DNA from: a virus
Taxonomy: Duplodnaviria > Heunggongvirae > Uroviricota > Caudoviricetes
DNA: 64,000 nucleotides
Virus record (IMG/VR): IMGVR_UViG_3300029305_003293
Location: 54,161-118,160 of that record
Reading direction: 5' to 3' (one strand)
The notes under the pieces are model-generated. The model worked only from the letters and a program-made list of their open reading frames with translations. It was not told where the DNA came from and searched no databases. Of this stretch, positions 41,949 to 58,093 are shown in pieces. The translations under genes and the position numbers were made by a program. Each line of letters opens with the position of its first letter. Position 1 is the stretch's first letter.

Positions 41949-42124
41949 CTACATCACTCCTTCGGCATACAATGACAAAGAATAGAAAGATCTGCAATAA
42001 TCATACAAAGAAGACCGAGCATTGCAGGTTCTCGGGGAATATTGTATTTAGAACAAATATAGCTGTATCCTACGTAAGCAAGAAAATTGATAATTCTTGA
42101 AACCATTAGAATCTTTCTCCTTTA

Positions 42125-42170
42125 TTTATTTTACATATATATTATATCAAAAATATAAAAAAAAATCAAG
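42125..42170 (-). promoter_or_regulatory. sigma70-type promoter, repeated family
   Basis: Minus strand: TTGATTTTTTTTTATATTTTTGATATAATATATATGTAAA, directly after a terminator. Confidence 0.55.
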
Positions 42171-42196
42171 GAGAAGATTATTCCTTCTCCTTTTTA
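42166..42196 (-). terminator. rho-independent terminator
   Basis: Minus strand: GGAGAAGG-AATAATC-TTCTCC followed by TTGATTTTTTTTT. Confidence 0.5.
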
Positions 42197-42331
42197 TTAT
42201 GAATTTTTCTTACAAATTCATCTGTTGCTTTTGTCTGAGCGCATAACGCTCCAAAAAAGTATCCTAGTGTTCCGCTTAATACAATACAAAAAATTATAGA
42301 TAAAATAGACATATTAAAACTCCTTAAACAA

Positions 42332-42358
42332 AAACCCGCCATAAGGCGGGTTATTTAA
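42332..42358 (-). terminator. rho-independent terminator
   Basis: Minus strand: AACCCGCC-TTAT-GGCGGGTT followed by TTTGTTT; after the vWA gene. Confidence 0.55.
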
Positions 42359-43909
42359 TTACTGAATACAAGCATAACGCTCCTTATTCAGAACTTCCAT
42401 CATCAGATCATAACCAGACTTGCCGGTCATAATAGACTGGAAGATAGAAGGGCTGAAGCCGGACACATAGCTTACCTTGGAACCATCCAACATAGGAATG
42501 TTAGACTGCCGTGCGTTGACATTCCAGAAGATAAGATGAGGAACCTCATAACCTTCTGCACGCCACTGCTTAGCAATACCTTCCATAAGAGTGTCAGCCA
42601 TGTGCATCTGCTCTTCATTAGGACGCTCATTCCAATAACTGTAGTTGCCAGTTGCCCGGTCAAACTCCATATCGGAAATTACGATAATGTTTTGAGGCAG
42701 ATCTGCCTGAGACATCTTATAACGACGAGCAGTAGTGAGAAGCATATTAAATGCAGCCTCAATATTGGTATTCTGGCACAGATTAGTCGCAACGATGCGA
42801 TCAACCTTGTCGCAGAAGTCTACACCTTCACACTCAATCAACTGAGGACGAGAACTGAAGGAGATGTAATGATTAGCAAAAGGACCATTGGCCTTTTCCG
42901 CACAATACAGACCGAAAGAGACAGCAACATTCATAGGAGTGCCAAGCATAGAACCCGAAGTGTCCACCATGGCAAGAGCATTGAAGGTTGCACCATTGAA
43001 ATAATCGGTAAGATTATCCCAATACTTATTAATCATGAGACGATCAGTATTATCGAGAGCAGGCTTTTCACGACGGGCCCAAGTGTAAGACTGAGGCTGA
43101 GGCTCCATCAGATTAATAGCCTTTTCAACGACTTCGTAAGGATAAAGAGTGCCGGCATTAACCTTAGTATTCTCATCCTTAGCGAAATCAGCATAAGACT
43201 GAACATTCTCATTCTTCATACGCTCAAGATCGTGGCGAGCGAAAGCGTTCTTATAGATAAGACCAGCCTTAGAAGGGATCTTATCAAACTCAATCTCGTC
43301 CCAACGATTCTCAGACATCAACTTCTCAAGAACATTGATGCGAGTGCGCAGAGCAGCAAGAACCTTGCGGTATTCCTTATGGGTCATACCGAGATAGCTG
43401 CGAGTGATATTACCCAGACGAGTAGATTCCTTAGAAGAAGCATTCTCGCTCTTGAGCCACTTTGCCAGCAAAGAAGGAGTCTTACACTCAACATCCAGTG
43501 CAAGCTGGTGCTTCATGATGGACAAAGCATCTTCCTGAAGAGGAGTGTCGATAAAAGCATACAGATCATCCCAGCGACCGAACTCAGGGATATGCTTCAT
43601 ATTGCGGCGAATCGCCTCTCGGCTATCAGCCTGCTTTGCAGCATCAGTCAGAATGGTGCGGAAGAAACGACGCTCGCCCTGGCCACCACGCACATCTCGG
43701 ATATAGAAAAGACACTTCAGCGCATAAACAGGATTTTCCTGAAATGCCTTACGCCACATAAGGATAATATCCGACTCATCGCGCTGACGCATAGCCGCAC
43801 CCATAGCAAACATATCCATCAGATTGCTGGTAGTAGTCTTATGAGTAAGAGCGCCATTTTCAGTGAAAGTCAGATTAGTATCATTCTTCAAAGCATTAAG
43901 CATAGTCAT
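42359..43909 (-). CDS. vWA-domain protein (DUF2828/TROVE-like)
   Basis: MIDAS-like VDTSGSM. 516 aa. A 5' UTR hairpin (GCCCCTTG...CAAGGGGC) lies at 43941-43958. Confidence 0.45.
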   Translation of the reverse strand: MTMLNALKNDTNLTFTENGALTHKTTTSNLMDMFAMGAAMRQRDESDIILMWRKAFQENPVYALKCLFYIRDVRGGQGERRFFRTILTDAAKQADSREAIRRNMKHIPEFGRWDDLYAFIDTPLQEDALSIMKHQLALDVECKTPSLLAKWLKSENASSKESTRLGNITRSYLGMTHKEYRKVLAALRTRINVLEKLMSENRWDEIEFDKIPSKAGLIYKNAFARHDLERMKNENVQSYADFAKDENTKVNAGTLYPYEVVEKAINLMEPQPQSYTWARREKPALDNTDRLMINKYWDNLTDYFNGATFNALAMVDTSGSMLGTPMNVAVSFGLYCAEKANGPFANHYISFSSRPQLIECEGVDFCDKVDRIVATNLCQNTNIEAAFNMLLTTARRYKMSQADLPQNIIVISDMEFDRATGNYSYWNERPNEEQMHMADTLMEGIAKQWRAEGYEVPHLIFWNVNARQSNIPMLDGSKVSYVSGFSPSIFQSIMTGKSGYDLMMEVLNKERYACIQ

Positions 43910-45139: not shown

Positions 45140-45190
45140 CATTTCTTATTATATATATATTATAACAAAAATATAAAAAAAAAATCAAGG
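45140..45190 (-). promoter_or_regulatory. sigma70-type promoter, repeated family
   Basis: Minus strand: TTGATTTTTTTTTTATATTTTTGTTATAATATATATATAATAAG, directly after a terminator. Confidence 0.5.
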
Positions 45191-45215
45191 TGAGATTTTT
45201 TAATCTCACCTTATA
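45183..45215 (-). terminator. rho-independent terminator
   Basis: Minus strand: AAGGTGAGATT-AAAAAA-TCTCACCTT followed by GATTTTTTTTTT; directly after the TAA of the fibre-like gene. Confidence 0.6.
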
Positions 45216-46020
45216 ATTAATAATAATATCTAATATTGCAAAAAGAAGTAGAAGAACTGCTATTACCTGTGGCGTCAGTATATCCACCAACATAAGAAAT
45301 AGTTTTTTCTCCGATAATATCTGAAACATCAATTGTATATTCGGCCCATGAACTACTTGTAATTGATCTATAATTTAACATCATATCAGCATAAATTACA
45401 GGAGAAGATGCTGTTAAACCGTCTGATACATAAAAACCTATATTGCCATGATCAGCATTTTTTCTTGCACAAAATTTAATTTGCTAAACATATGTTAAGT
45501 CTCTAATATCATCCCATCTTAAATAAGAAGATTTTGCACCAGAACTTGATGTTGATGAACCAACAATTGTAAAACCTGCACTTCCATCTACCTAATTTGT
45601 TAAATAAGTTGGAGAAACATTTTTAAAACCAATTGCTAAATCTGCTCTTGTTACTAAATAATTATAATTTAATTTATATTCATTAATACCAATATATTTA
45701 GCATCTAAAGAATAATTAGTATTAACTCCATTAAAACTATAAATTATATTATAAGTCCCAATTGCTGGTAAATTAAATATCCAATTGCCGGAATTATTTA
45801 TTCCTTCATATAGAATATTGTCTTTAGAAACAGTGATAGTAGCATCTAAATTAGAAGTTATTATTTTTAATGTTGGATGTAATGTATCAAGATATGATTT
45901 ATCTGAAGAAGAAAATAATCCATTTATATCTGATGTTGCATTTGGAATTACAATATGTCCTATCATATTATTAACAGATAAAACAGGCGGTGGCGGGGTT
46001 GGAGTCAAAAATCCTATCAT
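45216..46020 (-). CDS. fibre/receptor-binding-like structural protein with 2 in-frame TAG codons
   Basis: RBS GAGAGGTGA plus an ATG at 46018-46020. The track ORF 45592-46020 continues in frame through TAG (...SPTYLTN-TAG-VDGSAGFTIVG...LTYV-TAG-QIKFCARK...). It ends at a TAA, followed by a hairpin and T-tract. Confidence 0.4.
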
Positions 46021-46050
46021 TTTAATATCACCTCTCTACTTTATCTCAAA

Positions 46051-46090
46051 AAAAAAAAATAGACTGGCCTTTCCAGGCCAGTTTTTATTT
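46051..46090 (-). terminator. rho-independent terminator
   Basis: Minus strand: CTGGCC-TGGAAA-GGCCAG followed by TCTATTTTTTTTTTTT. Confidence 0.6.
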
Positions 46091-46626
46091 TAACTCAATT
46101 TTTTCCAATCGCTCGCAATACTACGACGAACATATTTACTATATGCATTTCCTGCGTGATCAAATAAAAGAGCCCAGCCATAAAAATGTTGACTATTTTG
46201 TTCGGCAATTTTATATGTATCAACAAAGAAAATACCACGGCAAGAAGAATCAACTTCTCTTGCACCTACCGGGATATCTTGACAACTGCGTTCCATATAC
46301 ATAGTATAAAGACCAGGACCAAGTTCATCCATTTTATCAACAAGCATCATATCATTTGTTGGACCAAGAGCAATTTTATGTTCACCATTTTCGCGCATAA
46401 TCTTAGCAAAAGGCATTGCGGCAAGCGCTTCCATAGTTACATAATTATCTGTTTCCTCAGCATCAGGGCAGATCCATTCACCTTTACTATTGGCCATATA
46501 CTCTTTACCATTTTCAATTACAAAACAGGTATCACCCATTGATTGAAATGGAACATTTTCTAAATCTGCAATAGTGTCTGCAATATAATGTTTATCCGTG
46601 CTTGGGGCGTATCTTTGAAAAGCCAT
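46090..46626 (-). CDS. hypothetical protein
   Basis: 178-aa ORF with no internal stops. A terminator hairpin follows at 46051-46090. Confidence 0.4.
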   Translation of the reverse strand: MAFQRYAPSTDKHYIADTIADLENVPFQSMGDTCFVIENGKEYMANSKGEWICPDAEETDNYVTMEALAAMPFAKIMRENGEHKIALGPTNDMMLVDKMDELGPGLYTMYMERSCQDIPVGAREVDSSCRGIFFVDTYKIAEQNSQHFYGWALLFDHAGNAYSKYVRRSIASDWKKLS

Positions 46627-46640
46627 AATTATTCCTCCAA

Positions 46641-47483
46641 TTAATCTAATTTATCTGCTAATCTTGCAGTAGCAGAGCGTTCTGTTGTTGGGAGATTTAC
46701 ATATTGAAAAAGAGGATCTCCAGCAAGTCTATCAACCATTCTGCGCAATCCAGAATTGTCTTCAAATACTTTTTTATCAACTTGAGAATAATCTCCTTCT
46801 ATCCAAAGGTTAGAACCTTCACCAACACGACCAATCAAAAGTTGGACATGCTGTTTAGTTAGATTCTCTGCTTCAGATGAAATAATAATTGAATTTTTAA
46901 TATCTCTGCCGCGAATAAAACCTAAATGTTGAATTTCAATTTGATTGCGGAAAATCATATCATTTACTTGTTCCATACCACCAAGATGGTCGGCGAGTGG
47001 TCCAACATATGGTGCAAGTTTTTCTTCTGCAGTTCCAGGTAGAGCACCTAAAGATACAGTATCTTTAACTTCAATATTATTACGAACCCATACAAGTTTT
47101 TCAAACTTTCCATCTAAAATCTAACTCATTGCATGTGCTACCATTAAGAAAGTTTTACCACTACCAAAACAACCAGTTAATACTTTTACTGTTGACTATT
47201 CATTTTGAAGCATATCAAATGCAAGTCGTTGTTCAATATTTCTCGGTGTGACCTTACCAAGTAAATCATTCTTAATAGGTTTATAGGTAATATGTCTATA
47301 TTTTTCACCAGTCCAGCAATAAGCATCGGCTGGATGTCCATCAGTATCCAGCACGACAAGATATTCACCAATATTAGAAAAATATATATTCCAATCTGGA
47401 TGACTATAAAAATCACTTAAATTAGGATCGTCGGCAGAAATAATCTTATAACCAGTATATCGTTCCATAATCATTCTCCTCAA
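46641..47483 (-). CDS. phoH: PhoH-like ATPase with 2 in-frame TAG codons (47196-47198 and 47121-47123)
   Basis: Track ORFs 47196-47483 and 46641-46976 join in one frame. Walker A GCFGSGKTFLMVA lies between the TAGs. The C-terminal GDYSQVD...SGL motifs are typical of PhoH. Confidence 0.65.
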
Positions 47484-48097
47484 GGTAATAAATCTGCGAT
47501 AGTATCAACAATGGCATCATATACACCGTGCTCGAGACCCTCTTGCGCTGTAATATACCAATCGCTAACAATATTTTCGGCGACTTCTTCTTCCGTATAT
47601 GAAGTTCGTTCACATACAAAGTGTGTTAATCTTTCAATTTCAGCTTGATATGCCAATACTGAAGGAAGAATTTCCGCATATGTACCAGAAAATGCGCCGC
47701 TGCCTTGATGGAATAACAATTTAGAACGTGGTAAAGTGAATCGTTTATGGCAAGAGAGTAAAATATACGCCGCGGAACTATAAGCATTACCCATATTATA
47801 ACCATATACAGGAGTCTTGCTTAAAGTGATTACATCAATTAAACTATTATTAACACTTAAATCTCCACCAGGGGAAAAGATAAATAGTTTAATTGGTTTG
47901 CGCTCTTCTGGCGGCAAGTGCTTATCCTCTTGATTCCATTGAAGAATATATTTTGTGATATATAAAGTATCTTCTCCAACTTCATCATCTAGCCAAATAA
48001 TACGGTTCTCTAAATCAGAATAATACTAAACTAAAGCGGGGTCGGGAGTTGTAAATTTTCTACTGATTTAGGAAGAGATACCAAAGTTACGTCCATT
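47480..48097 (-). CDS. ClpP-like serine protease with one in-frame TAG and an apparent -1 frame discontinuity near 48050
   Basis: FSPGGDLSVNNSLIDVI...VYGYNMGNAYSSAAYIL plus an upstream in-frame YYSDLENRIIWLDDEVGED. The ATG with RBS AAGGAGG at 48095-48097 is in the -1 frame across the heptamer A_AAT_TTA. Confidence 0.55.
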
Positions 48098-48109
48098 GGG
48101 TTTTCCTCC

Positions 48110-49054
48110 TTAACATAAGAAAGGTAAATATCCTTCCTTGATTTTTTTTATATATTCAATAACTGAATATTTTAAGATACCAGTTTGAATATCTAATTTA
48201 CAATATTCTTCGATAGGGCAGTCCAATAAATGTGAAAAAAGATTCCAAAATATTGGTAAAGCTCGCCACATATCATATAATTTACGAAGATCAGTTTCTT
48301 GATTTATGTAAATATAATATTTCATAAACCATTCTCGGACTAAATGTATAATTTGTTCATCGGTGAAACTTGGATCTTCTTTCATTTTCTAATAAGTATA
48401 TTCAAAATTTTTGAATTGTTGCCGCATATTATCATATTGAAAAGCATCATTATTTTTGTGATTATAACCATTTGGATTATAATTGTAAACACATATAATA
48501 TTATCAATATTTTGAATCTATGGGTAATAAGCATTACACCAAAAATTAAACACTAAATCTTCACTTGCTGAAATGGAACTAAAATGTATATTATGTTTAT
48601 TTAAAAAATCAAGCTTATATAATGTAGCGTGCGTCCAAACATCTACATTATTTGTAATTTCAATATCTTCTGGAGTTTTATAACGTAACATCAAGCCTTT
48701 TATGATATCAGCTTCACTATATATTGCATGTTCGTATAATACCTATAAACTATTATACCCAAATAGAACATCGTCGGCATCAAGATAATAAATATAATCC
48801 ATATTATCTTGAATAGCTGCTTGTAATCCAATGTTGCGATTAATAGCATGGCCCTAATTCGTATTATTAATAATAACTTGAATATTAATATGTGTTTTAA
48901 AGATATTAAATATATCTGAATAATCTTGATTATCGTCGATAATACAATAAAGTCGACATTGATTAACAATAGACTATATAGCAATAGATGAAAAACATTG
49001 AATCAAATAATCTCGATTATTATAAATTGTTGTTATAATTGCAATATTTTTCAT
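48110..49054 (-). CDS. family-2 glycosyltransferase (GT-A fold) with 5 in-frame TAG codons
   Basis: Read-through translation MKNIAIITTIYNNRDYLIQCFSSI...IIDDNQDYS...YYLDADD (DxD) joins the track ORF 48110-48385. RBS GAGGT precedes the ATG. Confidence 0.5.
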
Positions 49055-49109
49055 TATATACCTCAAATAAAAAAATGGGGAGAATAAAATATTTTATTCT
49101 CCCTTGTAA

Positions 49110-49989
49110 TTATTGTAATTCTTCATAAGCTTCTAATAAAAGTAAAGATCTGGCCTAATCACGGTATTCTGGTTTAATTAAATAATATACTAATGATTCA
49201 ATATAATTAATATTATTGTAATCTCGTCCTGCAATTTTAAAATGAGTGATTCCAAATTGTTGATTTAATTCCAATACTTGCTCATGAGTTAAACAAGATT
49301 TTAATTTATTTAAGCAGTCATAAAAAGTAAGAAAATCACGAGTTTCTGGTTTATAACATTGCAAAGTAATATTTCTATGTTGCTCTTGATTTAAAATATA
49401 TTGACTCTCAATTTTATAATGCAATTTACGATATGGGCATTCATCCGAGCATGCTTCAGACAACATTATCTCTAGATTTTCTGGATATAATAACTATCCT
49501 AATAAATGTGGTTTCATATTAAATCCATAGTCTAAAACAAGCATATCATTTTTACTTTTCTAATTAATTTCATTAATATCATGTAAACATAAAGAAGTAC
49601 TCCAAATAAAATTATATTTAGGAAAACGCTCATGTAAAAATTCTTTTAATTTTGGATCAGTGATAATAATAGAATTTCCATCATGCTCACAAGCCGCAGT
49701 CCATTGTAAATTTTTGAAATCATAATATGCTTCTTGCGGCAATTCACAATTTGTATAAGTATGTCGTAGATTTACTCCTAAATCATAATAATTATCACGT
49801 AAATCATATATGTCTGTAGTTTGTGCATCACAGTATTTATTTGGTTTAATAATTCTGCAACCACCCCAAATACTACCCGGTAAGCAACCATATACAGAAT
49901 CAACAATAGTGTTTTCATACATCCATTCTGGATGTGTTTTCTACAATGTCAAAAATGCCATATTTACATGATAATGACTATAATAACCC
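49110..49989 (-). CDS. Cys-rich hypothetical protein with 4 in-frame TAG codons
   Basis: Continuous frame joining the track ORFs 49560-49922 and 49155-49466 through TAGs at 49560 and 49155, with a further TAG in the N-terminal extension MLKFSIAGYYSHYHVNMAFLTL. Confidence 0.4.
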
Positions 49990-49995
49990 GCGATT

Positions 49996-50285
49996 GAAAA
50001 TTTTAACATTTTTTTTTACTCACTTATTGTATAAATTAAATTAATAATAGTATTATGTTTATTTTTATCATAGGTATATAAAATTTTACTAATATATCCA
50101 TGATATTCTTGCTACATCAATTGATTTTGAGAAACAATATTTAATGTATTTGTACCTAAAATTTTATTTAATACTTGTTGGTCTATATCATTATGTACTA
50201 ATTCAATATATGTCTCTTGTGGTTCAAAAAATATAGACATCTTTTCCGCACAAAAGTTAATATTATTAATTGAACAATTATACAT
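49996..50285 (-). CDS. hypothetical protein with one in-frame TAG
   Basis: MYNCSINNINFCAEK...; the ATG overlaps the upstream TAA (taaatg). Confidence 0.3.
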
Positions 50286-50624
50286 TTAAATATTTACTCC
50301 AAAATTATAATTAATATGGAATTTATTTACTTCCGGTTTATAATTAATATTAACATGAACAATACGCGCTGGAGCTGCGGTTTGATACACTGTGCGAGGT
50401 GCTTCAGAACCATCTTCTCCAGAATATTGTACAATTAGATTAGTAAAAGATTCTTGTGCCAAATTACGTAAGGCAGTAAATTCAGGCATTTCACCTATAT
50501 ATTCACAATTAATCCATATTGGATTTACTTCATCGCCTGGTTGAAACATAATATTAAAATTAACAAGATTTAAATGAATACCAGCAGGATTTGATTCTGT
50601 TGGTAAAATTAATGTATAAGACAT
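50286..50624 (-). CDS. hypothetical protein
   Basis: RBS GAGGAGG lies 8 nt upstream of ATG-MSYTLILPTESNPAG... Confidence 0.35.
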   Translation of the reverse strand: MSYTLILPTESNPAGIHLNLVNFNIMFQPGDEVNPIWINCEYIGEMPEFTALRNLAQESFTNLIVQYSGEDGSEAPRTVYQTAAPARIVHVNINYKPEVNKFHINYNFGVNI

Positions 50625-50628
50625 AAGT

Positions 50629-50832
50629 TTATTCCTCCTCAATATTACACAAATACTTACACTTTAAACGAAAAAATCTTCGTATTTCATAATAATCATT
50701 TTCAAAAATCAATGTTTTATTAATTTTTAATTTTTTACTTAAATGATTATTATCATAGAATATTTGAATTGTTTCAACATTACTATAATCATAGTTATTA
50801 TCAATTTCATTATTTGAATAAATTTCAAACAT
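50629..50832 (-). CDS. hypothetical protein
   Basis: 67-aa Asn/Tyr-rich ORF. Confidence 0.3.
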   Translation of the reverse strand: MFEIYSNNEIDNNYDYSNVETIQIFYDNNHLSKKLKINKTLIFENDYYEIRRFFRLKCKYLCNIEEE

Positions 50833-50936
50833 AATTGTTATAGTTGATAATTTTCCTTGTTCATCATAAGAATGTGCTTCTTCAAAAAAATTAATATTAT
50901 GATTAGTAGTAATATTATTCTATAATAATTGTGCAA

Positions 50937-51431
50937 TTAACATGATGACTCATCCTTTAATAAGGAAGTTAAAAATCGATGTGATAACTTATATGGAGTA
51001 GCACTATTATTAATAACTCCCTGCTGCTGAATAATTAAACTTTCACATTGCAAAAGTAAAGTAGATAAACTATTTTTCATTAAAACTAATTTAGATAAAT
51101 TGGATATAAGTTCTAAATATTGTTCATCATTAAACATTAAGCTATAGTTTTGTACTAATACAATAATAGCTTCATAAATAGAAAAGGCTTCCTGATCTAC
51201 TTCTTCTAATATTAATGCCGGCAATAATAGCAATCCATGTCCAAGGATTTTCTAATCTTCTTCATTTAAAGTAAATTCAAAAGTCTCATCATCAAGTTTT
51301 TGTTCTACCATTCTACAAATTTCTTTAAGTACTGGCATAAAACCTTGACAAAAAATTCTCATATTATTCGCAAGAATATAAGGATGAGTATCTAAATAAA
51401 CAATCCATTCTTTTACACTTTCAAATTCCAT
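50937..51431 (-). CDS. hypothetical protein with one in-frame TAG
   Basis: MEFESVKEWIVYLDTHPY...NEED-TAG-KILGHGLLLLPALILEEVDQ... joins the track ORF 50937-51233. Confidence 0.35.
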
Positions 51432-51435
51432 ATAA

Positions 51436-52814
51436 TTATATATTCTCCTTTTTAATAATTTCTACACAATTCGCGACTGCTGATTGTGGAATTACGTCTA
51501 AAAAATTATCTAAAGCATTAAATTCTTTTAATTTTTTTAAGATTGTAATTATTTTTATAAATTCTAAATTACAAACAGAAGGAATTGGGGTAAAAAGTTC
51601 TTTAGTAACTTCATATTGACTTCCTAAACATCCATGAATACACATTGTATTTAATAAACAAGAATTACAAATATGCTATTTAGATGGTTTCATTCCTAAA
51701 ATTGTAATTCCTATTTCTGTATTATCTGCAATAATTTCTGTAATTTCATCATTTTGATCATCTATAATAAAATGTCCAAATTTTAATTCAGGATATAATA
51801 AACGATGACAGGGGTAAATTGTTAAATCAGAAATTTTTATCATTAAATTTTCTGCTAGTGTACAAGAAAAAGCATCGGAATCATAACGTTTAAAATTAGC
51901 TGATAATATATTAAATCCACCGCTATGTATATCAGATGAAGTTAATTTCCCAATCAAAGTATCTGGATCATGATTGGCTAACTCAAATAATTGATCCATT
52001 AAAAATGAAATAAAATCTTGAAATAATAATAATTTTTCTGTTGTCCAATTATAATTTCTAACTTCTAATAAATATAAATCGTCTAAAGAAAATCCATATT
52101 TAAGAAGCATTTCTTTAAACCATAAGAAATTATTTTTCCAAACATGAATGTTTTCAGGAGAAATCATAGGATGTGGTAAACTATTACTATCTACCATAAA
52201 CTAAAATAATTTTTCATAAAAATCTTGATTTAATACATAAGTATCACTTAATGGAATGTCTAAATCTGTTTTATATTTTCTAGTAATAGCATCTGCGTAA
52301 TATCCATCTGTACTAATACTAAAATATACATCAATATTTATTTTTTTAAATTCTTGCTATATTGCTATAATTTTATTATATAATAATTGATTTTGAATAA
52401 AAGTCCCATTTGTAGGAATGGTAATATAAGCTGGTCTATCTTGCGGCTCTTCTTGATAAAAAGTTAATATGGTCTCTAATAATTTAAAACCACTCTCTTG
52501 GGCAAATAATTCTCCAGAAAAAATTTCTAAAGAAGGATGAGCCTTCTATTTTCGCAGCCATGTTAATAATAAAATTGTATTTTTAATAGCTTTGTCACCA
52601 TCAAAAGGAAAATGCTATGTATAAATATTTTCATTATTATTTTTAATATAACAATATTCACATTTTAAATTACATTTTGGAGAAAATATAATTTCTAAAG
52701 AACTTTTTGGTTTATTACTCTACCAATCTTTAATAAAATATTCATTAATTACTGTTGAAATTAAATTATCATTTAATTCTTGATAATTACTATAATTAAC
52801 ACAATGTGTCTTCA
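51436..52814 (-). CDS. radical SAM enzyme with a C-terminal SPASM-like Cys-rich domain; 6 in-frame TAG codons
   Basis: CxxxCxxC (SPKCNLKCEYCY) near the N-terminus. The frame runs through the track ORFs 51676-52197 and 51436-51645. C-terminal HICNSCLLNTMCIHGCLGS. Confidence 0.55.
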
Positions 52815-54121
52815 TAATAAGCAATTAACTCCTCTAACGCTCCATTTGCTAATAATCTAATGGTTCCTAATGGAATTACACTCGCATTATTAGTCTAAGT
52901 TCCATGTTCACCAGCATAACAAGAAATGCCGCCTGTAAATACAAACAATAAACGTTTTAATATTGGATCTATATATTTTTTATCGATCTCACCTGCAGCA
53001 ACCATTGCTAATAATAGTGAATCTAATGAACTTTCACTTAACCTGTGATTCATTTGATAAGCAGCATTTGTATATTCAATACGGTCTAACTCTTTATCAG
53101 TAAAAGCAACCTAAGTATTAATCGCGAATTTTTTATCTTTTTCGCCACCCATCATATAACTATCATACATGCGATGACAAGTCATGATATTACCCTTGTG
53201 ATCAATAACTGCAGAGCCAATTCCTGCTCCGCATCTTAATTCTGAACCAGTATAATCTAATACGCCAACAGAATCTTTCCACGAAAAAATAAAACGCTGT
53301 ATAATAGGATGACTATATTCAGGTAATTGAGTAATATCAATTTCTCTTAATTTTCTAATAAGTTTACCATAGTTAATACCATCCTATTTAGTATAATTAT
53401 ATGGTGTTACTAATGTTGGCTCTTGAGTTAAATGTAAATTAATATAATTATTATTATTAATTAACTTACGACATTTTTGTTGTAATATATCAAAAAACTA
53501 TAGCCATTTAAATAAATTATCATTCTCTAATAATTTTGGCCATCTATCGGCAGGCACAGTAGGTTTAGTGTGTAAACTCAAATAAAACTAATCACCAGAT
53601 AATGTTTTATTATTTTCGCAAGTATCCAAAATAGTCTAATAAATAATATCAGTAATGCCCTTATAACCTCTTGAGACATCAGTAATTTCAGCAGGGCCAT
53701 CCAATGAAAACTAGATTGTTAAATGAATAGGACGATCATGTAATTCACTATATTTTTTAAAATATTCTATATATGGTTTAATTCCTTTTTCATAACCCAA
53801 TAAACCATTAGTAGAAAACATAAATGTTTCTAAAAAAGGAAAAAATTCTAATAATGGTTCACAAAAAGTCGCAATTAAATCAGCATTTAAAGTTGGTTCA
53901 CCAGACCATAATGACAAACCTTTTATATTATATTTAGCTTCATTAAATTTTGTAATAATATTATTTTGAAAAGAACCATCAACAATACTGTTTCTAATTT
54001 CTTCATTGTATAAATGCATATTTGAAGGATTTTTATGAATAAAACAATATTCACAAGCTAAATTGCAACTACCCACAAACACACATTCTAAATGATCAAT
54101 CGTTTTTACTAAACTACGCAT
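52795..54121 (-). CDS. radical SAM enzyme with a SPASM-like domain; multiple in-frame TAG codons and an apparent 1-nt frame discontinuity near 53635
   Basis: CNLACEYCF (CxxxCxxC) in the track ORF 53711-54121. The downstream frame carries CGAGIGSAVIDHKGNIMTCHRM and GGISCYAGEHG Cys clusters. The TAA at 52795 overlaps the start of the next radical SAM gene. Confidence 0.5.
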
Positions 54122-54142
54122 ATAATAATTATTTTTTCACAA

Positions 54143-54427
54143 TTATATACTATATAAACGTGAAATTAATTCTCCTCCACACTTTCTAAAACCGCTATAA
54201 CGAACGGAACCATTATTTCCTCCACAATGACTGCCATCGCCGCTACCTCGACTATTATGGCTTCGTACTGAACCATTGTGGCTTGTATAATTAGAGCTCC
54301 AATTAGAACCACAATGTGTATCTATCATATTTTGAGCATTAGTCTAAGCTGTAGTAAGCCATCTACCAACATCGCTCGCTTTGACTAAAGAACCTTGTGA
54401 ACCTGAAGTTAAATTCGTCCAAGCCAT
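54143..54427 (-). CDS. small Cys/Gly/Ser/Asn-rich protein, precursor-peptide-like (paralog 1), with an in-frame TAG
   Basis: RBS GGAGGAG plus ATG: MAWTNLTSGSQGSLVKASDVGRWLTTA-TAG-TNAQNMIDTHCGSNWSSNYTSHNGSVRSHNSRGSGDGSHCGGNNGSVRYSGFRKCGGELISRLYSI. Confidence 0.4.
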
Positions 54428-54738
54428 TGTACCATTTCTCCTCCACACTTATTATTAGTATAAACAGATCGATTGCTGCAATTGCTATTACCGCTACCTA
54501 CTCCATTATGACTACAATTACTGTGAGTGCCCGGTTTAGAAGTAGCATAAGATGAATTAGCAGCACTACCTATATTATTTAATTCTGTCAATAAAGCGGA
54601 TTTTAATAATGTACCTGCCGCTATAGAATTAGTCCAAGTATAAGTACTACCCGTTGTAATACGATAAGCAGATGCTATAGTATTTTTAATACTATTAACG
54701 TCAGCAGCTTGTACTTTCTAACCCTGTGTTAAAGCCAT
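54409..54738 (-). CDS. small Cys/Gly/Ser/Asn-rich protein, precursor-peptide-like (paralog 2), with an in-frame TAG at codon 7
   Basis: RBS AAGGTGGG plus an ATG at 54736-54738: MALTQG-TAG-KVQAADVNSIKNTIASAYRITTGSTYTWTNSIAAGTLLKSALLTELNNIGSAANSSYATSKPGTHSNCSHNGVGSGNSNCSNRSVYTNNKCGGEMVQWLGRI. Confidence 0.4.
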
Positions 54739-54847
54739 ATAAAATATCCCACCTTTATTTAAATTTTATATATAAAATATAAAATACCAGTCTATATTAT
54801 ATATAAAATTTAAACTAATATTTTAATATAATTTGCCCTTATTTAAC

Positions 54848-54890
54848 TCTTTAATTAAATTATATCATATTTTTTTTCTAAAGTCAAATG
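54848..54890 (-). promoter_or_regulatory. sigma70-type promoter upstream of the precursor-like/radical SAM gene cluster
   Basis: Minus strand: TTGACTTTAGAAAAAAAATATGATATAATTTAATTAAAG (TTGACT-N17-TATAAT). It lacks the ATATATGTAAGG extension of the other copies. Confidence 0.55.
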
Positions 54891-54987
54891 AATTTTTCTA
54901 AACCCATTTTTGAATTGACCGTGCCCGCGCCGAGCAACCAAATATTTCCTTTATACCAATATCATAGCATAATTTTTCTAGAAAGTC

Positions 54988-55025
54988 AAAAAAGGTGGGT
55001 TCATCACATTCATGATGAACCCACC
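54988..55025 (-). terminator. rho-independent terminator at the downstream end of the tRNA array
   Basis: Minus strand: GGTGGGTTCATCA-TGAATG-TGATGAACCCACC (13-bp stem) followed by TTTTTT; just after tRNA-Val. Confidence 0.6.
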
Positions 55026-55065
55026 TTAAAGGCCAAGAGCTTCGTAAGTTTTCTGGGCACTGAAC

Positions 55066-55141
55066 TGGTGCGAAGTGACGGGCTCGAACCGCCGACCCTC
55101 TGCTTGTAAGGCAGATGCTCTCCCAGCTGAGCTAACCCCGC
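55066..55141 (-). tRNA. tRNA-Val (anticodon UAC)
   Basis: Cloverleaf with acceptor GCGGGGU/ACUUCGC (two G-U pairs), anticodon loop CUUACAA, T-loop GGTTCGAGCC, CCA encoded. Confidence 0.8.
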
Positions 55142-55479
55142 AAGTTGGGCTTCATTGAAGCCCGTCGAAAGGAAAGGAAGAAAGAAGTAAAGTGCTTTGC
55201 ATCAATAATTATTTCAAAAGAATGTTGTGATTTCAAGAGATACAATTCAAAATCTTTAATTATCTGTAGCAAAGCGTCATCACGATCTAATATTGTTAGA
55301 TCTCCAAACTATTACTTAATAATAGTATCATTGCTGTTAATCTCTTCAGTCAGATATTAGACAATCTCTTTAACTCTTACGAGGGGCCAAAGCATTTCTA
55401 TTACTGACCGCACATTTTTTTTCTTGTATTAATTCTTGCATTTTATAATTACATTACAAATTGCAGTTTAGGCCCAATG

Positions 55480-55567
55480 TGGCGGAAGCGGCAGGATTCG
55501 AACCTGCGGAGCTGTTACACTCTCTTGTTTTCTAGACAAGTGCCATAATCCACTCGGCCACGCTTCC
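55480..55567 (-). tRNA. tRNA-Ser-like, type II; anticodon loop CUAGAAA reads AGA in the canonical register
   Basis: GGAAGCG...CGCUUCC acceptor, discriminator G, long variable arm, T-loop GGTTCGAATCC, CCA encoded. A at position 34 is unusual, and the loop contains the triplet CUA. Confidence 0.6.
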
Positions 55568-55589
55568 ATAAACAAACAAGGCACGCATC

Positions 55590-55661
55590 GACCGGAAAGG
55601 AGACTCGAACTCCTGAGTTCCACCTTGAGGGTAGCGTTCTAACCATCTGAACTATTCTGGT
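55590..55661 (-). pseudogene. atypical tRNA-like element (irregular anticodon arm, no CCA)
   Basis: Acceptor ACCAGAA/UUCCGGU with an A-C mismatch, D-arm GUUC...GAAC and T-arm AGGAG-UUCGAGU-CUCCU. The anticodon arm has either a 5-nt loop or the loop CCUCAAG (UCA or CAA). Confidence 0.35.
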
Positions 55662-55687
55662 AGTTTTGCTGTTTATGCCTTTTGAAC

Positions 55688-55764
55688 TGGTCCGCCATCT
55701 AGGACTTGAACCCAGGACAAGCTGTATATAAGACAGCCGCTCTAACCAGCTGAACTAATGGCGG
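55688..55764 (-). tRNA. tRNA-Ile (anticodon UAU)
   Basis: Acceptor CCGCCAU/AUGGCGG, anticodon loop CUUAUAU, T-loop GGTTCAAGTCC, CCA encoded. Confidence 0.7.
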
Positions 55765-55770
55765 ATAAAA

Positions 55771-55846
55771 TGGAGCCGGTGACAGGACTTGAACCTGCAA
55801 CCTAGTGATTACAAATCACTTGCGCTGCCAATTGCGCCACACCGGC
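55771..55846 (-). tRNA. tRNA-Thr (anticodon UGU)
   Basis: Acceptor GCCGGUG/CACCGGC, anticodon stem AGUGA/UCACU with loop UUUGUAA, CCA encoded. Confidence 0.7.
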
Positions 55847-56105
55847 ACAAAGATAACCGAAACGCACCATTCTTCAAACTACACCGCTTACTGTATGACC
55901 ACGAGCCAAGCGCCTTTCTCCCCTTGAGGTCTGGGGCCCACACCCGCCTCGTTATCCAAACAATACGCCTCGTATTATCTTGCCTAATTTTTAAATAACT
56001 CCATATGTTTTGCGGCTTACATATTTTGTTATCAAAAATTAGAAAATTCTATCACAATAAATAAATATCACAATATCATCCAGTTATCAATCCGCTCTTG
56101 GATGC

Positions 56106-56181
56106 TGGCTGGGGTGGTAGGGCTCGAACCTACATATGCACGGGTCAAAGCCGTGTGCCTTCACCATTTGGCGACACCCCA
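56106..56181 (-). tRNA. tRNA-Gln (anticodon UUG)
   Basis: Resembles E. coli tRNA-Gln: UGGGGUG...CACCCCA G CCA, loop CUUUGAC. Confidence 0.8.
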
Positions 56182-56194
56182 TTAGATGGTTGAA

Positions 56195-56443
56195 TTACTC
56201 AACCACGCGGAAACGATCAAACTCAAGAGGAAAATGTCCGTCATGAATAAGATTGATTAGATACATACCACCAGAAAAATCAGCTCGCGCATACAGCATA
56301 CCAAGCATAGAACCCGGATTCACTGCGTATTCGCCACGAAAATCTTCAAGTCGATAAGTATCTTCTGCTCGCGCGATTAGACTAATGAAATCAACAAGAT
56401 CTCGTTCAGTTTCAATCGCAATTCGCATTCGAGTATTAGGCAT
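56195..56443 (-). CDS. hypothetical protein embedded in the tRNA array
   Basis: 82-aa ORF lying between tRNA-Gln and tRNA-His. Confidence 0.3.
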   Translation of the reverse strand: MPNTRMRIAIETERDLVDFISLIARAEDTYRLEDFRGEYAVNPGSMLGMLYARADFSGGMYLINLIHDGHFPLEFDRFRVVE

Positions 56444-56470
56444 AACTCTAACTCCTTTTGATTAAATAAA

Positions 56471-56547
56471 TGGGGTGTGCGATGGGACTTGAACCCACAA
56501 ACCACAAGAGCCACAATCTTGCGCTCTACCATTGAGCTACGCACAAC
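56471..56547 (-). tRNA. tRNA-His (anticodon GUG) with an extra 5' G(-1)
   Basis: G-1 pairs with C73; loop UUGUGGC; T-loop GGTTCAAGTCC; CCA encoded. There is one U1-C72 mismatch. Confidence 0.7.
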
Positions 56548-56672
56548 ATATAAAGCTTCGGGAGCGAACTATTCCACATATTTTTGGACAATATGCTTTA
56601 TCAAATTATTGCCCGAAGCATGACACCAAAATACATATTGGGAGTTTTTTGACAAAGAGGCACCCAGCTCTG

Positions 56673-56749
56673 TGGCGACTCCGATGGGGTTCGAACCCAC
56701 GACCTCTAGCGTGACAGGCTAGCGCTCTAACCAGCTGAGCTACGGAGCC
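56673..56749 (-). tRNA. tRNA-Asp (anticodon GUC)
   Basis: GGCUCCG...CGGAGUC G CCA; loop CUGUCAC; T-loop GGTTCGAACCC. Confidence 0.8.
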
Positions 56750-57212
56750 ATATTAAGCCCTACAGTATAGGCTGGGCTGCCTCTTCTCGTACTGCTCAAA
56801 GGATTTTTTATCCATCATACTCTTTGCTCTACCAAATCAAAAAGTACTAAAGGAGACGATACTAATCAAGAAAGCAGTTACATCCGGCGTCGCTTCCTTA
56901 TCTCACACTCAGTCATCCTCGCTCGTCTCAACGAGGCTCTATGTCATCTCTCTTGATTAGATGTTAGTTTTTATTGGCTTGCGGTAATTACTAACAACCC
57001 ACATAGCACTCCACATTTAACTCTTTTCGCCAATCGAGGAAAATGCTTCATCATGCGGACTTATCTCAAGTATAAGTCTCATTGCGACCACTCGCGTCCC
57101 ACCAGTCTGTTGACCTTTTTGGTTATTACAAGTCTCACCTGCCAAAGCCTTGTCCGTCGCATATTTTATTGAAAAATCCGGAGTTTATTTACTCTCCCTA
57201 CGGCAAAGGAGA

Positions 57213-57289
57213 TGGTCGGGCATCTTGGACTCGAACCAAGGACTTCCACCTTATCAGAGTGGCGCTCTAACCAACTGAACTAATGCCCG
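57213..57289 (-). tRNA. tRNA-Ile (anticodon GAU)
   Basis: CGGGCAU...AUGCCCG A CCA; loop CUGAUAA; T-loop GGTTCGAGTCC. Confidence 0.8.
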
Positions 57290-57291
57290 AT

Positions 57292-57411
57292 ATACAAGAC
57301 AGCTAACTAGTTTTGCTCGACCAATTGAGCTATTCACACCACACGGCATAAAATCGGACTCGAACCGATAACACAAACTTAGAGTTTGAATTTGCTGTAA
57401 CTGTCTTAAAA
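57292..57411 (-). pseudogene. tRNA-like fragments (D-arm-like TAGCTCAATTGGTCGAGCA and T-arm-like ATCGGTTCGAGTCCGAT) with no complete cloverleaf
   Basis: Segments with tRNA arm signatures that do not assemble into a tRNA; no matching acceptor halves were found. Confidence 0.3.
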
Positions 57412-57458
57412 TGGTGCCGAGAGTGGGACTTGAACCCACACATCTTTTGGATACTTGA
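57412..57458 (-). other. 3' half of a split type-II Leu-like tRNA (UCAAG stem strand, variable arm, T-arm, UCUCGGC acceptor strand, A, CCA)
   Basis: UCAAG-UAUCCAAAAGAUG-UGUGGG-UUCAAGU-CCCAC-UCUCGGC-A-CCA. It pairs with the 5' half at 58094-58125, located 660 nt away. Confidence 0.5.
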
Positions 57459-57459
57459 T

Positions 57460-57942
57460 TTAACGATTATTTTTACCACCATAACTATCTGTTATAGCAT
57501 GGCAATTTGGGCAACGATATTCTAAATTACTTAATTCATTATTTGTTCTATCTCCATCCTTATAATGTAATTGTAGAGTAAGAATGTGTCCCATCCAATT
57601 TCCATCACATCCACATCCAGCACATTGATAAGGAATTAATTTATCTTTATCAATATATCGTCTTAATGTTATATTGGAGATATCTTTACCTTTTACGAAT
57701 AAAGTTTCAATAGAATATTTTTCTTCAAAATCTGGTTTATCTCGCCAATGCTATCCAGTAAAATGCGAAATATCAATTTCATATTCAGCAATTTTTTTTC
57801 TAAGTGTAGCTTGACTTCCGCCACCTTGTGCTCTTCCAGCTTTTCGCAATACTTCAGCCAGCGAATAACTCTCTGCACATAGTTCTTGCAACCAGTCTTT
57901 TGAATATTTTCGTAATGACATAATTATCACACTTCCTTTCAT
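57460..57942 (-). CDS. HNH homing-endonuclease-like protein with an in-frame TAG (57751-57753)
   Basis: RBS AAAGGAAG plus an ATG at 57942. The track ORF 57751-57942 continues through TAG into CAGCGCDGNWMGHILTLQLHYKDGDRTNNELSNLEYRCPNCH (HNH/zinc motif). Confidence 0.55.
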
Positions 57943-57994
57943 TGTATTATGAAAGTTTTATTAGTCTGCCTAATTACGTCTGCCCATTTTTTTT

Positions 57995-58081: not shown

Positions 58082-58093
58082 ATACTCGTCTTT

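Follow-up and report, generated by a model that had tools for sequence, protein, structure and literature searches.

TAG codons in the gene cassette

The question raised by this locus is whether the TAG codons that interrupt its genes are stops or are read as an amino acid and, if so, as which one and by which tRNA. The window, that is the whole stretch of 64,000 nucleotides analysed, is part of a ~173-kb tailed-phage genome and is 100% identical to the JGI contig Ga0318466_10001365 over the part compared. The public JGI gene calls for this identical contig are fragmented in the region 45217-54738, giving products of 31-136 aa. A sequence-only reading of this region had proposed that TAG is a sense codon and table 11 inapplicable, and had expected ORF length to increase on re-calling. 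This was observed, as the coverage of 45217-54738 by minus-strand ORFs of at least 75 aa rose from 52% with table 11 to 98% when TAG was read as sense; reading TGA as sense gave 52.5%. All the genes of the region lie on the minus strand, and with TAA and TGA as the sole stops it resolves into 13 back-to-back genes plus ClpP. Ten of the 13 genes that reach 90 aa contain in-frame TAG. The 2,907 codons of the 13 genes contain TAG 31 times and neither TAA nor TGA in frame; out of frame, TAA occurs 104 and 210 times and TGA 32 and 157 times. The TAG codons are skewed towards the 5' part of the genes (mean relative position 0.39, t-test p = 0.007), the effect being modest.

The last gene of the block in the direction of transcription (45217-46020, 267 aa) contains two TAG codons (low coordinates 45592 and 45484), ends with TAA and showed no match in Pfam or PHROG. 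Directly past it lies a terminator-like consensus match, a hairpin of 12-bp stem followed by a T run (45186-45213, minus strand). The 267-aa gene is preceded by a TAG-free gene of 178 aa (46090-46626), a PhoH-like ATPase of 277 aa (46641-47474; TAG at 47196 and 47121) and a ClpP-like protease (47480-48096; Pfam PF00574, 6.2e-23) whose single TAG at 48026 is kept as TAG in three relatives. In DNA alignment with the relatives L001, L005 and L007, the ClpP gene is one nucleotide short in a run of C (48044-48046), which interrupts its reading frame; one added C restores a 205-aa protein. A family-2 glycosyltransferase (GT2) of 314 aa (48110-49054) carries five TAG codons (48974, 48854, 48743, 48518, 48389), and a 299-aa gene (49110-50009), having an ortholog of 56% identity in L007, carries four (49941, 49560, 49494, 49155). 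Small genes at 50016-50285, 50629-50943 and 50937-51431 have one TAG each (50112, 50920 and 51252, respectively), and that at 50286-50624 has none.

Two radical SAM/SPASM proteins are encoded further upstream. Protein 1 (51436-52815, 459 aa) has six TAG codons (52720, 52615, 52546, 52357, 52201, 51676) and matched the NCBIfam PapB-like family (1.2e-16) and a SPASM domain, both under the family cut-offs. Protein 2 (52796-54121, 441 aa) has seven (53711, 53636, 53588, 53498, 53384, 53111, 52895) and matched Pfam Fer4_12 and Radical_SAM as well as NCBIfam models. Two small overlapping Cys/Gly/Ser-rich ORFs follow at 54143-54427 and 54409-54738, each with one TAG (54344 and 54718) and a C-terminal KCGGE motif; small ORFs are found in synteny upstream of the two radical SAM genes in L007. 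The cassette is absent or divergent in the relatives. Two promoter-like sites (54989-54961 and 54887-54859, minus strand) lie between the first TAG-containing gene and a terminator-like hairpin of 16-bp stem and T run (55027-54992, minus strand) past the last tRNA, all being consensus matches.

The sequence-only reading had also stated that conserved motifs continue in the same frame on either side of the TAG codons and that a break of homology at these positions would speak against it. The matches were found to be continuous. PhoH matched Pfam PF02562 in a single stretch across its TAG codons (residues 75-262, 1.4e-39), and the quoted string ...DMLQNE-TAG-STVKVLTGCFGSGKTFLMVAHAMS-TAG-ILDGKFEK... 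is present. GT2 matched PF00535 in one stretch spanning three TAG codons (residues 6-135, 2.4e-11), the radical SAM proteins matched PHROG 1802 (residues 19-434 in protein 1 and 18-347 in protein 2), and ClpP and the HNH gene described below likewise gave single-stretch matches. The dN/dS ratio (omega) past the first TAG was 0.05-0.08 for PhoH and 0.13 for GT2; because of these low values, the sequence past the first TAG in both genes is under purifying selection.

Amino acid assigned to TAG

Alignment of the read-through products with their homologs, suggested earlier as a means to infer the inserted residue, pointed to glutamine, with TAG and CAA/CAG replacing each other in relatives. Most window TAG codons are matched there by CAA/CAG or by a TAG that has been kept. 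The TAG codons had 47 alignment partners, TAG-TAG pairs left out, of which 17 were Gln and every other residue accounted for at most four. The BLOSUM62 sums over these partners were 68 for Q, 13 for E, 7 for K, -2 for S, -29 for Y, -67 for L and -101 for W, so that by sequence comparison Gln appears as the clear winner, with Glu next. Where the aligned sequences were at least 82% identical, the partner was CAA/CAG seven times and ACA, AAA and TAT once each; in low-identity alignments the partners were diverse (K, N, L, H, Y, S). Both TAG positions of PhoH are CAA/CAG or TAG in relatives, and the L007 ortholog of GT2 (82% identity) has CAA, AAA, TAG, TAT and CAA at the five TAG positions. The reverse exchange is found at PhoH codon 82, the site of a universally conserved Gln, where the window has Gln but five relatives have TAG; the codon aligns to Gln in PDB 3b85, the one solved PhoH structure. 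Judged from these comparisons, TAG is a sense codon predicted to specify glutamine, i.e. genetic code 15.

Suppressor tRNA

A 93-nt amber-suppressor tRNA with the anticodon CUA was identified by ARAGORN at 61944-62036 on the minus strand (Rfam tRNA, 52.3 bits, full length). It has a U1·U72 mismatch, G2-C71, the discriminator G73, an encoded CCA and a variable arm of 23 nt with a 5-bp hairpin, which is atypical for tRNA-Gln. It shares 86% identity with a tRNA-Sup-CTA of 88 nt that is annotated in phage Phass-1. Of 36 positions compared with other tRNAs of the window, 27 agree with Leu(CAA), 27 with Trp(CCA) and 25 with Gln, which does not discriminate the isotype. A sigma-70-like promoter match (TTGACT, 17 nt, TG-TATAAT; 11/12 to consensus; 62055-62083, minus strand) ends 18 nt upstream of it. 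The gene belongs to an array of 23 tRNA genes (55066-63949, minus strand), out of 34 on the contig, which adjoins the TAG-rich block immediately upstream in the direction of transcription. A second tRNA-like gene bears a UCA anticodon.

The array also encloses an HNH endonuclease gene (57460-57942, minus strand) with one TAG at codon 64 and a single PHROG 10822 match (residues 9-159, 3.6e-41); the string quoted earlier for it, ...ISHFTG-TAG-HWRDKPDF...CAGCGCDGNW, is present, though this gene lies outside 45216-54738, where it had been placed. A DNA methyltransferase-like gene (61162-61866, minus strand; PHROG 757, 6.3e-57, residues 1-234) has one TAG at codon 30. A scan of ~55 window proteins revealed neither a release factor nor an aminoacyl-tRNA synthetase.

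Laboratory amber suppressors consist of a single tRNA with a CUA anticodon which competes with RF1; in E. coli, supE is a tRNA-Gln with CUA and su7 is a tRNA-Trp with CUA that is charged with Gln. GlnRS tolerates CUA and favours a weak 1:72 pair together with G73.

Block-wise use of TAG

Among ~64 window genes, none is clearly terminated by TAG, this role being served by TAA and TGA. The earlier statement that TAA ends all checked genes holds for 12 of 13 genes in the block, ClpP ending with TGA. TGA was correctly taken to be still a stop, as shown by ATGA stop/start overlaps at 10127, 13115, 20528 and 41187, by the short extensions on read-through and by zero coverage gain when it is read as sense.

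The block 1-45142 (minus strand), with genes for replication, nucleotide metabolism and RNA repair, is almost without TAG. Its products include NrdD, a Pol III alpha-like polymerase, RecJ, primase, DnaB, topoisomerase II, DNA ligase, RNase H, RNA ligase and YqeY, and its genes end with TAA (28) or TGA (16) and in no clear case with TAG, one gene ending TAG-ATG-TAA. TAG makes up 26.5% of all TAG, CAA and CAG codons within 45200-54800 but 2.5% within 1-45200 (Fisher p = 4e-14). The TAG-rich block has a GC content of 29% against 36.7%, and CAG has nearly gone from it (7 codons, with 30 TAG). Thus the claim that table 11 fails for the element applies to 45217-54738 but not to 1-45200; the genome is block-structured rather than uniformly recoded, and the early replication block is still read correctly with table 11. 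Code 15 used by blocks in this way has been described by Borges et al. (bioRxiv 10.1101/2021.08.26.457843) and for phage phAss-1 (PMC10607447).

Embedded in the TAG-free block is a gene (20528-21502, minus strand) with six TAG codons, earlier called spanin-like and located in the cassette. It lies outside the latter and encodes a GIY-YIG nuclease (Pfam PF01541, 6.5e-11) with an N-terminal membrane and coiled-coil part. The range of two to six TAG codons given for this gene, GT2 and the radical SAM genes is right except for radical SAM protein 2. A small gene at 29903-30313 (minus strand) within the early block has two. On the same contig, beyond the window start, genes of the RuvC-like, GIY-YIG and SpoIID/NlpC lysin types contain 3-6 TAG codons apiece. 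Taken together, the earlier observation of sense TAG is confirmed and its interpretation supported.

Proposed mechanism and alternative explanations

The suppressor tRNA would be expressed from a promoter of its own inside the tRNA array, and the host would supply the enzymes that charge it with Gln (GlnRS, or GluRS plus GatCAB), a route to which its weak 1:72 pair and G73 would be suited. It would then compete with host RF1 at UAG. Since the replication, nucleotide-metabolism and RNA-repair genes are almost TAG-free, unmodified host machinery could translate them at once. The TAG-bearing genes would yield full-length protein only after the suppressor has built up; these gated genes would comprise the accessory cassette 45217-54738, the homing endonucleases and, beyond the window, the RuvC-like, lysin and structural-type genes. 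This translational timing follows the model of Borges et al. (bioRxiv 10.1101/2021.08.26.457843). The TAG-rich block can be called late by inference only, because its gene content is not that of a classical structural or lysis module and it has sigma-70-like promoter matches. The explanation as a whole, namely TAG as Gln, a phage suppressor tRNA and timing by blocks, is considered highly probable.

It is extremely improbable that the TAG codons are true stops in a cassette of decaying pseudogenes or short genes, or products of assembly or sequencing errors. The short fragments of the public table-11 calls, the AT-richness and variability of the block and the 1-nt frameshift in ClpP would agree with such decay, but it conflicts with the lack of in-frame TAA and TGA against hundreds out of frame, with the omega of 0.05-0.13 and domain matches across TAG, and with the encoded cognate suppressor. 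Errors are countered by TAG positions kept in independent assemblies and by six independently deposited contigs that are 100% identical to the window over their overlaps (window 52430-64000). A sense TAG read as Ser, Leu, Tyr, Trp or pyrrolysine is also very unlikely. The long, type-II-like variable arm would suit Ser, Leu or Tyr, yet the suppressor has neither A73, as in tRNA-Leu and tRNA-Tyr, nor G1-C72, as in tRNA-Ser, although G73 is also the discriminator of bacterial tRNA-Ser. For Leu and Trp there is the tie in the D and anticodon arms; moreover, 72 of 120 collected PhoH homologs have Leu at the second TAG position, and the second BLAST match of the suppressor is a Gordonia phage tRNA-Trp. 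Against these stand the BLOSUM62 sums, the close relatives, in which CAA/CAG but no codon for Ser, Leu or Trp is found at the TAG positions of the window, and PhoH codon 82. Pyrrolysine is the label given to the suppressor by ARAGORN, but tRNA-Pyl has a variable loop of 3 nt against 23 nt here, and no pyl genes were seen in the scans.

A less likely but possible explanation accepts TAG as Gln and denies its block-wise distribution a regulatory role: C-to-T drift at CAG would have enriched TAG in an AT-rich, recently acquired cassette and in mobile endonucleases, and highly expressed core genes would shun a poorly decoded codon. The low GC and near-absent CAG of the block could also have arisen by mutational drift in a variable cassette, without regulation. 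Its absence or divergence in relatives, the mobile GIY-YIG and HNH nature of the other TAG-rich window genes and the sigma-70-like promoter matches ahead of it point the same way. Timing is favoured by the lysin-type, RuvC-like and structural-type genes across the replication block, which also carry TAG and so match the late-gene pattern of many recoded clades (bioRxiv 10.1101/2021.08.26.457843), and by the 5' skew, which is expected for a gate although modest.

Comparison with known systems

The window phage resembles supE and su7 in its single CUA tRNA and differs in that suppression is the normal decoding of dozens of genes and in the extra 23-nt variable arm. According to PMC9523058, TAG is Gln in code-15 crAss-like phages by direct metaproteomic peptide evidence; the window phage would share this assignment, but the lineage is unrelated (Crassvirales, Bacteroidota hosts).

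The recoded gut phage clades described by Borges et al. (Lak, crAss-like, Agate, Sapphire, Jade, Garnet, Amethyst, Topaz; bioRxiv 10.1101/2021.08.26.457843) likewise have predicted standard-code hosts, replication genes in standard code, recoded modules scattered over the genome, a phage-borne suppressor tRNA, a strongly recoded homing endonuclease among early genes, TAA as main stop and recoded codons that vary between relatives. Unlike in these clades, the recoded block of the window is an accessory cassette (PhoH, ClpP, GT2, two radical SAM/SPASM genes, Cys-rich ORFs) and not structural or lysis genes, and no code-change module with RF2 or aminoacyl-tRNA synthetase was found among the window proteins scanned. 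No terminase is present in the window.

The phage is gut-type and distantly related to phAss-1, Enterococcus EF1-like and Bacillus SPbeta-like phages, and its host is therefore probably a standard-code member of Bacillota. The nearest annotated relative, with 38.7% DNA polymerase identity, is phAss-1 (OQ749652; proposed Phassvirus; NCBI 'Caudoviricetes code 15 clade'; PMC10607447). Both phages read TAG as Gln and share a Pol III alpha-type polymerase, NrdD/NrdG, ClpP, PhoH, NADAR and dUTPase; relatives differ in the presence of TAG in ClpP and PhoH (PMC10607447). phAss-1 has 36 tRNA genes including tRNA-Sup-CTA, one of 88 nt with the same long variable arm; it is without a phage aminoacyl-tRNA synthetase, in line with the result for the window proteins scanned, and a Clostridia/Bacillota host is suspected. 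The two differ in genome size (~173 kb against 136 kb) and in CUA tRNAs (one found against three), and megablast similarity of phAss-1 to the window is confined to tRNAs. The window phage is a lineage other than phAss-1 and outside that genus, and is a clear new example of TAG-as-Gln recoding with a phage-borne suppressor tRNA, a phenomenon already well documented in phages.

Reading frames of the TAG-rich block

The minus-strand genes between 45217 and 54738 were called with TAA and TGA as the sole stop codons, which gave a tight gene series and bore out the sequence-only reading of TAG as a sense codon in this block. The series, all on the minus strand, comprises a gene at 45217-46020 (two in-frame TAGs), PhoH (46641-47474, two), ClpP (47480-48096, one), a family-2 glycosyltransferase, GT2 (48110-49054, five), a gene at 49110-50009 (four), small genes in 50016-51431 (one each in three of the four), the radical SAM/SPASM gene rSAM-1 (51436-52815, six), a second radical SAM/SPASM gene (52796-54121, seven) and two small Cys-rich ORFs (54143-54427 and 54409-54738, one each). 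The peptide strings quoted in that reading were present. For 13 block genes excluding ClpP (2,907 codons), the coding frame held 31 TAG and neither TAA nor TGA; the two other frames of the same genes held 104 and 210 TAA and 32 and 157 TGA. When genes were re-called with TAG as sense, coverage of the block by minus-strand ORFs of at least 75 aa rose from 52% under the standard code (table 11) to 98%. The JGI table-11 calls on the same DNA were fragments of 31-136 aa. The earlier observation of in-frame TAG is confirmed.

The family matches were compared with the TAG positions, and the break in homology that the earlier reading had named as contrary evidence was not seen, as PhoH, GT2, the HNH protein and both radical SAM proteins matched as single stretches spanning one to six TAGs. 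PhoH matched PF02562 at 1.4e-39 over residues 75-262 in one stretch, and GT2 matched PF00535 over residues 6-135, spanning three TAGs. The HNH protein matched phrog_10822 at 3.6e-41 over residues 9-159, with no Pfam match at 1e-3, and the two radical SAM proteins matched phrog_1802 over residues 19-434 and 18-347. Both also matched PapB-like radical SAM/SPASM peptide maturase models, under the curated cut-offs, and rSAM-1 matched the SPASM domain model as well. ClpP matched PF00574 at 6.2e-23, the matched part being downstream of its single TAG. Profile scans gave no family for the small Cys-rich ORFs and the 49110-50009 protein. Comparison with the orthologs of related contigs gave dN/dS values past the first TAG of 0.05-0.08 for PhoH and 0.13 for GT2, and of 0.3-0.5 in the more divergent radical SAM and 49110 genes. 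Pseudogenes and true stops are ruled out because the family matches cross the TAGs and purifying selection continues beyond the first of them.

A C run in the ClpP gene (48044-48046) is one nucleotide short, CCC in the window where the contigs of three relatives (L001, L005 and L007) have CCCC, and this deletion puts the two parts of ClpP in different frames. Adding one C gave a 205-aa ClpP resembling that of the relatives; the missing base could stem from misassembly or from a true frameshift mutation, or the run could be a site of slippage.

Termination and the status of TGA

The stop codon was TAA in 46 and TGA in 18 of the 64 genes of at least 90 aa, with no clear case of TAG. The one gene with TAG as a possible terminator was 19198-20085 (minus strand), which ends ...GYEG-TAG-ATG-TAA; its product differs by two residues according to how the TAG is read. 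That TGA is still a stop, as claimed earlier, agrees with the 18 genes it ends, with ATGA overlaps of a TGA stop and the next start (10127, 13115, 20528 and 41187), with the short read-through extensions past TGA stops and with a negligible gain in coverage when TGA was taken as sense (52.5% vs 52.2% in the block; 91.1% vs 90.1% in the early block, 1-45200). The "tgataa" at 17652 consists of a TGA and a TAA in tandem. TGA recoding (codes 4 and 25) was rejected, as it brought no coverage gain and TGA ends those 18 genes. The ratio of TAA to TGA stops was 23:2 in TAG-containing genes vs 38:18 in TAG-free genes (Fisher p = 0.025), counted over the window genes together with two further loci, L048 11617-19705 and L010 1-8777. 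This depletion of TGA stops could reflect the lower GC of the TAG-containing genes or a link to a tRNA-like gene with anticodon UCA.

Identity of the inserted residue

The closest database homologs of PhoH have Q at both TAG positions, and several of them are themselves translations made with an alternative code. Because such proteins, already translated with code 15, would make the comparison circular, codons were compared in the DNA of seven related contigs. A search with PhoH alone for related loci in viral contigs gave zero confirmed relatives, and the relatives were obtained via homologous proteins and then the contigs encoding them. The partner of a window TAG was a conserved TAG or CAA/CAG far oftener than any other codon. 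Counted in both directions, Gln made up 17 of the 47 non-TAG partners and every other residue at most four, and the BLOSUM62 sums over these partners were 68 for Q, 13 for E, 7 for K, -2 for S, -29 for Y, -67 for L and -101 for W. Alignments of at least 82% identity gave CAA or CAG seven times and ACA, AAA and TAT once each. At PhoH codon 82 the window has Gln, which aligns to a Gln of 3b85, the sole solved PhoH structure, and five relatives have TAG. Because the codon partners, the BLOSUM62 sums and PhoH codon 82 agree on Gln, TAG is, as judged from these alignments, a glutamine codon (genetic code 15). The alignment to homologs put forward earlier for inferring the residue thus gave Gln through the codon partners in the DNA of relatives, and the earlier interpretation is upheld, with Gln taken as the residue inserted at TAG.

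Other residues were weighed against the same data and the window's suppressor tRNA. Pyrrolysine would have suited the "Pyl" label of that tRNA, which is ARAGORN's name for the CUA anticodon; its architecture differs from tRNA-Pyl, with a variable arm of 23 nt vs a 3-nt loop, Lys-like partners at TAG positions are few, and the Pyl pathway (pylS, pylBCD) was absent from the window protein scans. The long variable arm is as expected of a type-II suppressor inserting Ser, Leu or Tyr. Insertion of these residues was rejected, since the tRNA has U1·U72 with G73 and not A73 (Leu, Tyr) or G1-C72 with G73 (Ser), and since the BLOSUM62 sums of these residues lie far under that of Q; Trp was rejected on its sum of -101 vs 68.

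Suppressor tRNA(CUA) and a second stop-anticodon gene

The suppressor tRNA (61944-62036, minus strand, 93 nt) was found by ARAGORN and Rfam (52.3 bits). Its acceptor end shows a U1·U72 mismatch next to G2-C71, the discriminator is G73, CCA is encoded, and the variable arm is 23 nt long with a 5-bp hairpin. A strong sigma-70-like match (TTGACT, 17 nt, TG-TATAAT; consensus match only) ends 18 nt upstream of this tRNA. A weak 1:72 pair and G73 agree with tRNA-Gln identity, and these features of tRNA(CUA) offer a lead towards it. Similarity to the window's other tRNAs does not discriminate the isotype. Phage-encoded cognate suppressor tRNAs are common among code-15 phages and not universal.

Long-arm amber suppressors recur in large phage contigs (61944-62036; L020-L047; L056 2988-3075). 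Among 32 IMG/VR loci with the same anticodon arm (GGTCTCTAAAACC), 13 had variable arms of 20-28 nt; these arms form hairpins differing in sequence and mostly accompany U1:A72 and G73. Ten related viral tRNAs likewise had variable-arm hairpins of differing sequence. The published code-15 phage phAss-1 has two adjacent tRNA-Sup-CTA genes, and the 88-nt one is 86% identical to tRNA(CUA), arm included. The variable arm found no mention in the recoding literature searched, and to our knowledge no publication has dealt with a long-arm class of phage tRNA(CUA). It is possible that such a class exists, in which a Gln/Trp-like acceptor end (weak or mismatched 1:72 and G73) goes together with a variable-arm hairpin of 20-28 nt resembling that of type-II tRNAs. 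The long arm might direct non-canonical charging or help the tRNA to escape host defences that target tRNAs.

A tRNA-like gene with anticodon UCA lies at 55590-55661 (minus strand, 72 nt), with orthologs at L001 5241-5312 and L007 1089-1160. The anticodon is UCA in the window vs UUA, in the same register, in these two close relatives, and the remainder of the molecule is nearly invariant among the three. It is the only tRNA of the array without an encoded CCA, it has an A4·C69 mismatch, and position 33 is C in the window and L007 instead of the near-universal U, which L001 retains. The gene looks degenerate. Exact-pattern scans of viral and metagenome contigs were empty, with a pattern that does match the fetched loci, and blastn against phages gave generic tRNA similarity only. 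Given the conservation of the UCA/UUA gene and the shortage of TGA stops in genes that contain TAG, the lineage might be trying out suppression of further stop codons. A joint reading, in which the decoder and not the recoding itself is the unusual element, with a distinct tRNA(CUA) class and possible suppression of further stop codons, is considered decidedly improbable.

Window layout and block-wise use of TAG

The window has a GC content of 35.6%, with C strongly exceeding G, and every convincing gene is on the minus strand. The JGI metagenome contig 3300031555|Ga0318466_10001365 (173,261 bp) is 100% identical over window 52430-64000, and window 1-11,496 is 100% identical to another piece of it. 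Along the direction of transcription, from high to low coordinates, come the tRNA array (63949-55066, 23 tRNA genes), the TAG-rich block (54738-45217) and a replication, nucleotide-metabolism and RNA-repair block (45142-1). The last encodes NrdD, a Pol III alpha-type polymerase, RecJ, primase, DnaB, both topoisomerase II subunits and DNA ligase, and further RNase H, RNA ligase, RlaP, several phosphoesterases, NADAR, a nucleoside deoxyribosyltransferase and YqeY.

The share of TAG among TAG, CAA and CAG was 26.5% in 45200-54800 (30, 76 and 7 codons) and 2.5% in 1-45200 (11, 240 and 183), the difference being highly significant (Fisher p = 4e-14). Most of the 11 early-block TAGs lie in a GIY-YIG nuclease gene (20528-21502, minus strand, six) and a small gene (29903-30313, minus strand, two), and two more lie upstream of likely true starts. 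In the tRNA array, the HNH endonuclease gene and a methyltransferase-like gene carry one TAG each. Beyond the window start on the same contig, TAGs were found in a second GIY-YIG gene (five), a RuvC-like gene (six) and a divergently oriented gene set including a SpoIID/NlpC/SH3 lysin-type protein (three). In-frame TAGs lay preferentially in the 5' portion of genes (mean relative position 0.39, p = 0.007). Mobile-type nucleases comprise the two GIY-YIG proteins, the HNH inside the tRNA array and PD-(D/E)XK endonucleases (20528-21502, 57460-57942, 58247-58642; L048 11617-12288). One GIY-YIG protein has an N-terminal transmembrane and coiled-coil part, and GIY-YIG and HNH genes bear TAG even amid neighbours without it.

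In the mechanism proposed, tRNA(CUA) would be charged with Gln by host enzymes and would compete with host RF1, so that TAG-free genes could be translated immediately and TAG-bearing genes would wait for suppressor build-up. Scans of about 55 proteins gave neither a release factor nor an aminoacyl-tRNA synthetase. Suppressor-accumulation timing is the model of Borges et al. (bioRxiv 10.1101/2021.08.26.457843), who also described replication genes kept in the standard code, recoded modules scattered over the genome and, in the midst of early genes, a homing endonuclease with heavy recoding. The block is bounded upstream by a terminator-like hairpin and promoter-like sites (55027-54859) and downstream by a terminator-like hairpin (45213-45186), all consensus matches only. 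GC was 29% in 45200-54800 vs 36.7% elsewhere, and the rival account of block-wise TAG use, in which CAG drifted to TAG in mobile genes and in a variable cassette rich in AT with no regulatory role, is regarded as the less likely of the two. CAG is nearly gone from 45200-54800, as though TAG had replaced it.

Accessory gene sets

The stretch 48110-54738 looks like a phage-borne peptide-maturation (RiPP-like) cassette. The two small Cys-, Gly- and Ser-rich ORFs, each ending KCGGE-x, lie directly upstream of the two PapB-like radical SAM/SPASM genes, which are followed by several further genes and then GT2; the gene order is syntenic in L007 at 46-56% identity.

An RNA-repair-type gene set was observed at 32758-43909 and 60171-60488, comprising RNA ligase (36583-38049), RlaP (41187-41954), an AAA_33/KTI12-type kinase (33371-33949), a DUF2828/PHROG 'RNA-binding protein' (42359-43909), a cREC_REC protein (60171-60488) and three or four calcineurin-like phosphoesterases. 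The set fits a role in shielding the large tRNA set from host anticodon nucleases. A free-standing YqeY protein (38651-39088, minus strand; PF09424, 1e-20) is encoded within the TAG-free block, its gene being conserved among relatives. The YqeY domain resembles the tRNA-Gln-binding tail of GatB, and it is tempting to think that it helps to make Gln-tRNA(CUA); this idea stays speculative because standard-code T4-like phages also have YqeY.

Significance and relation to known phages

Annotation with table 11, including the public one, leaves at least 20 genes fragmented or missed, among them PhoH, ClpP, the glycosyltransferase, the two radical SAM/SPASM enzymes and homing endonucleases, and the contig requires annotation with code 15 or a multi-code caller. 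The host is most likely a standard-code member of the Bacillota. The recoding phenomenon is already known, and the genome represents a new and fairly remote case of it, which adds a Bacillota-type lineage of about 173 kb to the known phages switching TAG meaning during infection and leaves the picture from earlier surveys unchanged. The long-variable-arm suppressor tRNA class and the RiPP-maturation-like cassette may merit follow-up.

Proteomic support for TAG as Gln in crAss-like phages is given in PMC9523058. The nearest annotated genome to the window is phAss-1 (OQ749652; NCBI "Caudoviricetes code 15 clade"), with a DNA polymerase identity of 38.7%, no better than that of Enterococcus EF1-like and Bacillus SPbeta-like phages. 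When 40000-64000 was compared with phage records by megablast, it matched tRNAs only, with no nucleotide-level similarity to phAss-1, and membership of the genus Phassvirus was rejected on this result and on the polymerase identity, which is of amino acids. The window and phAss-1 have in common their gene repertoire, TAG as Gln and suppressor tRNAs (PMC10607447).
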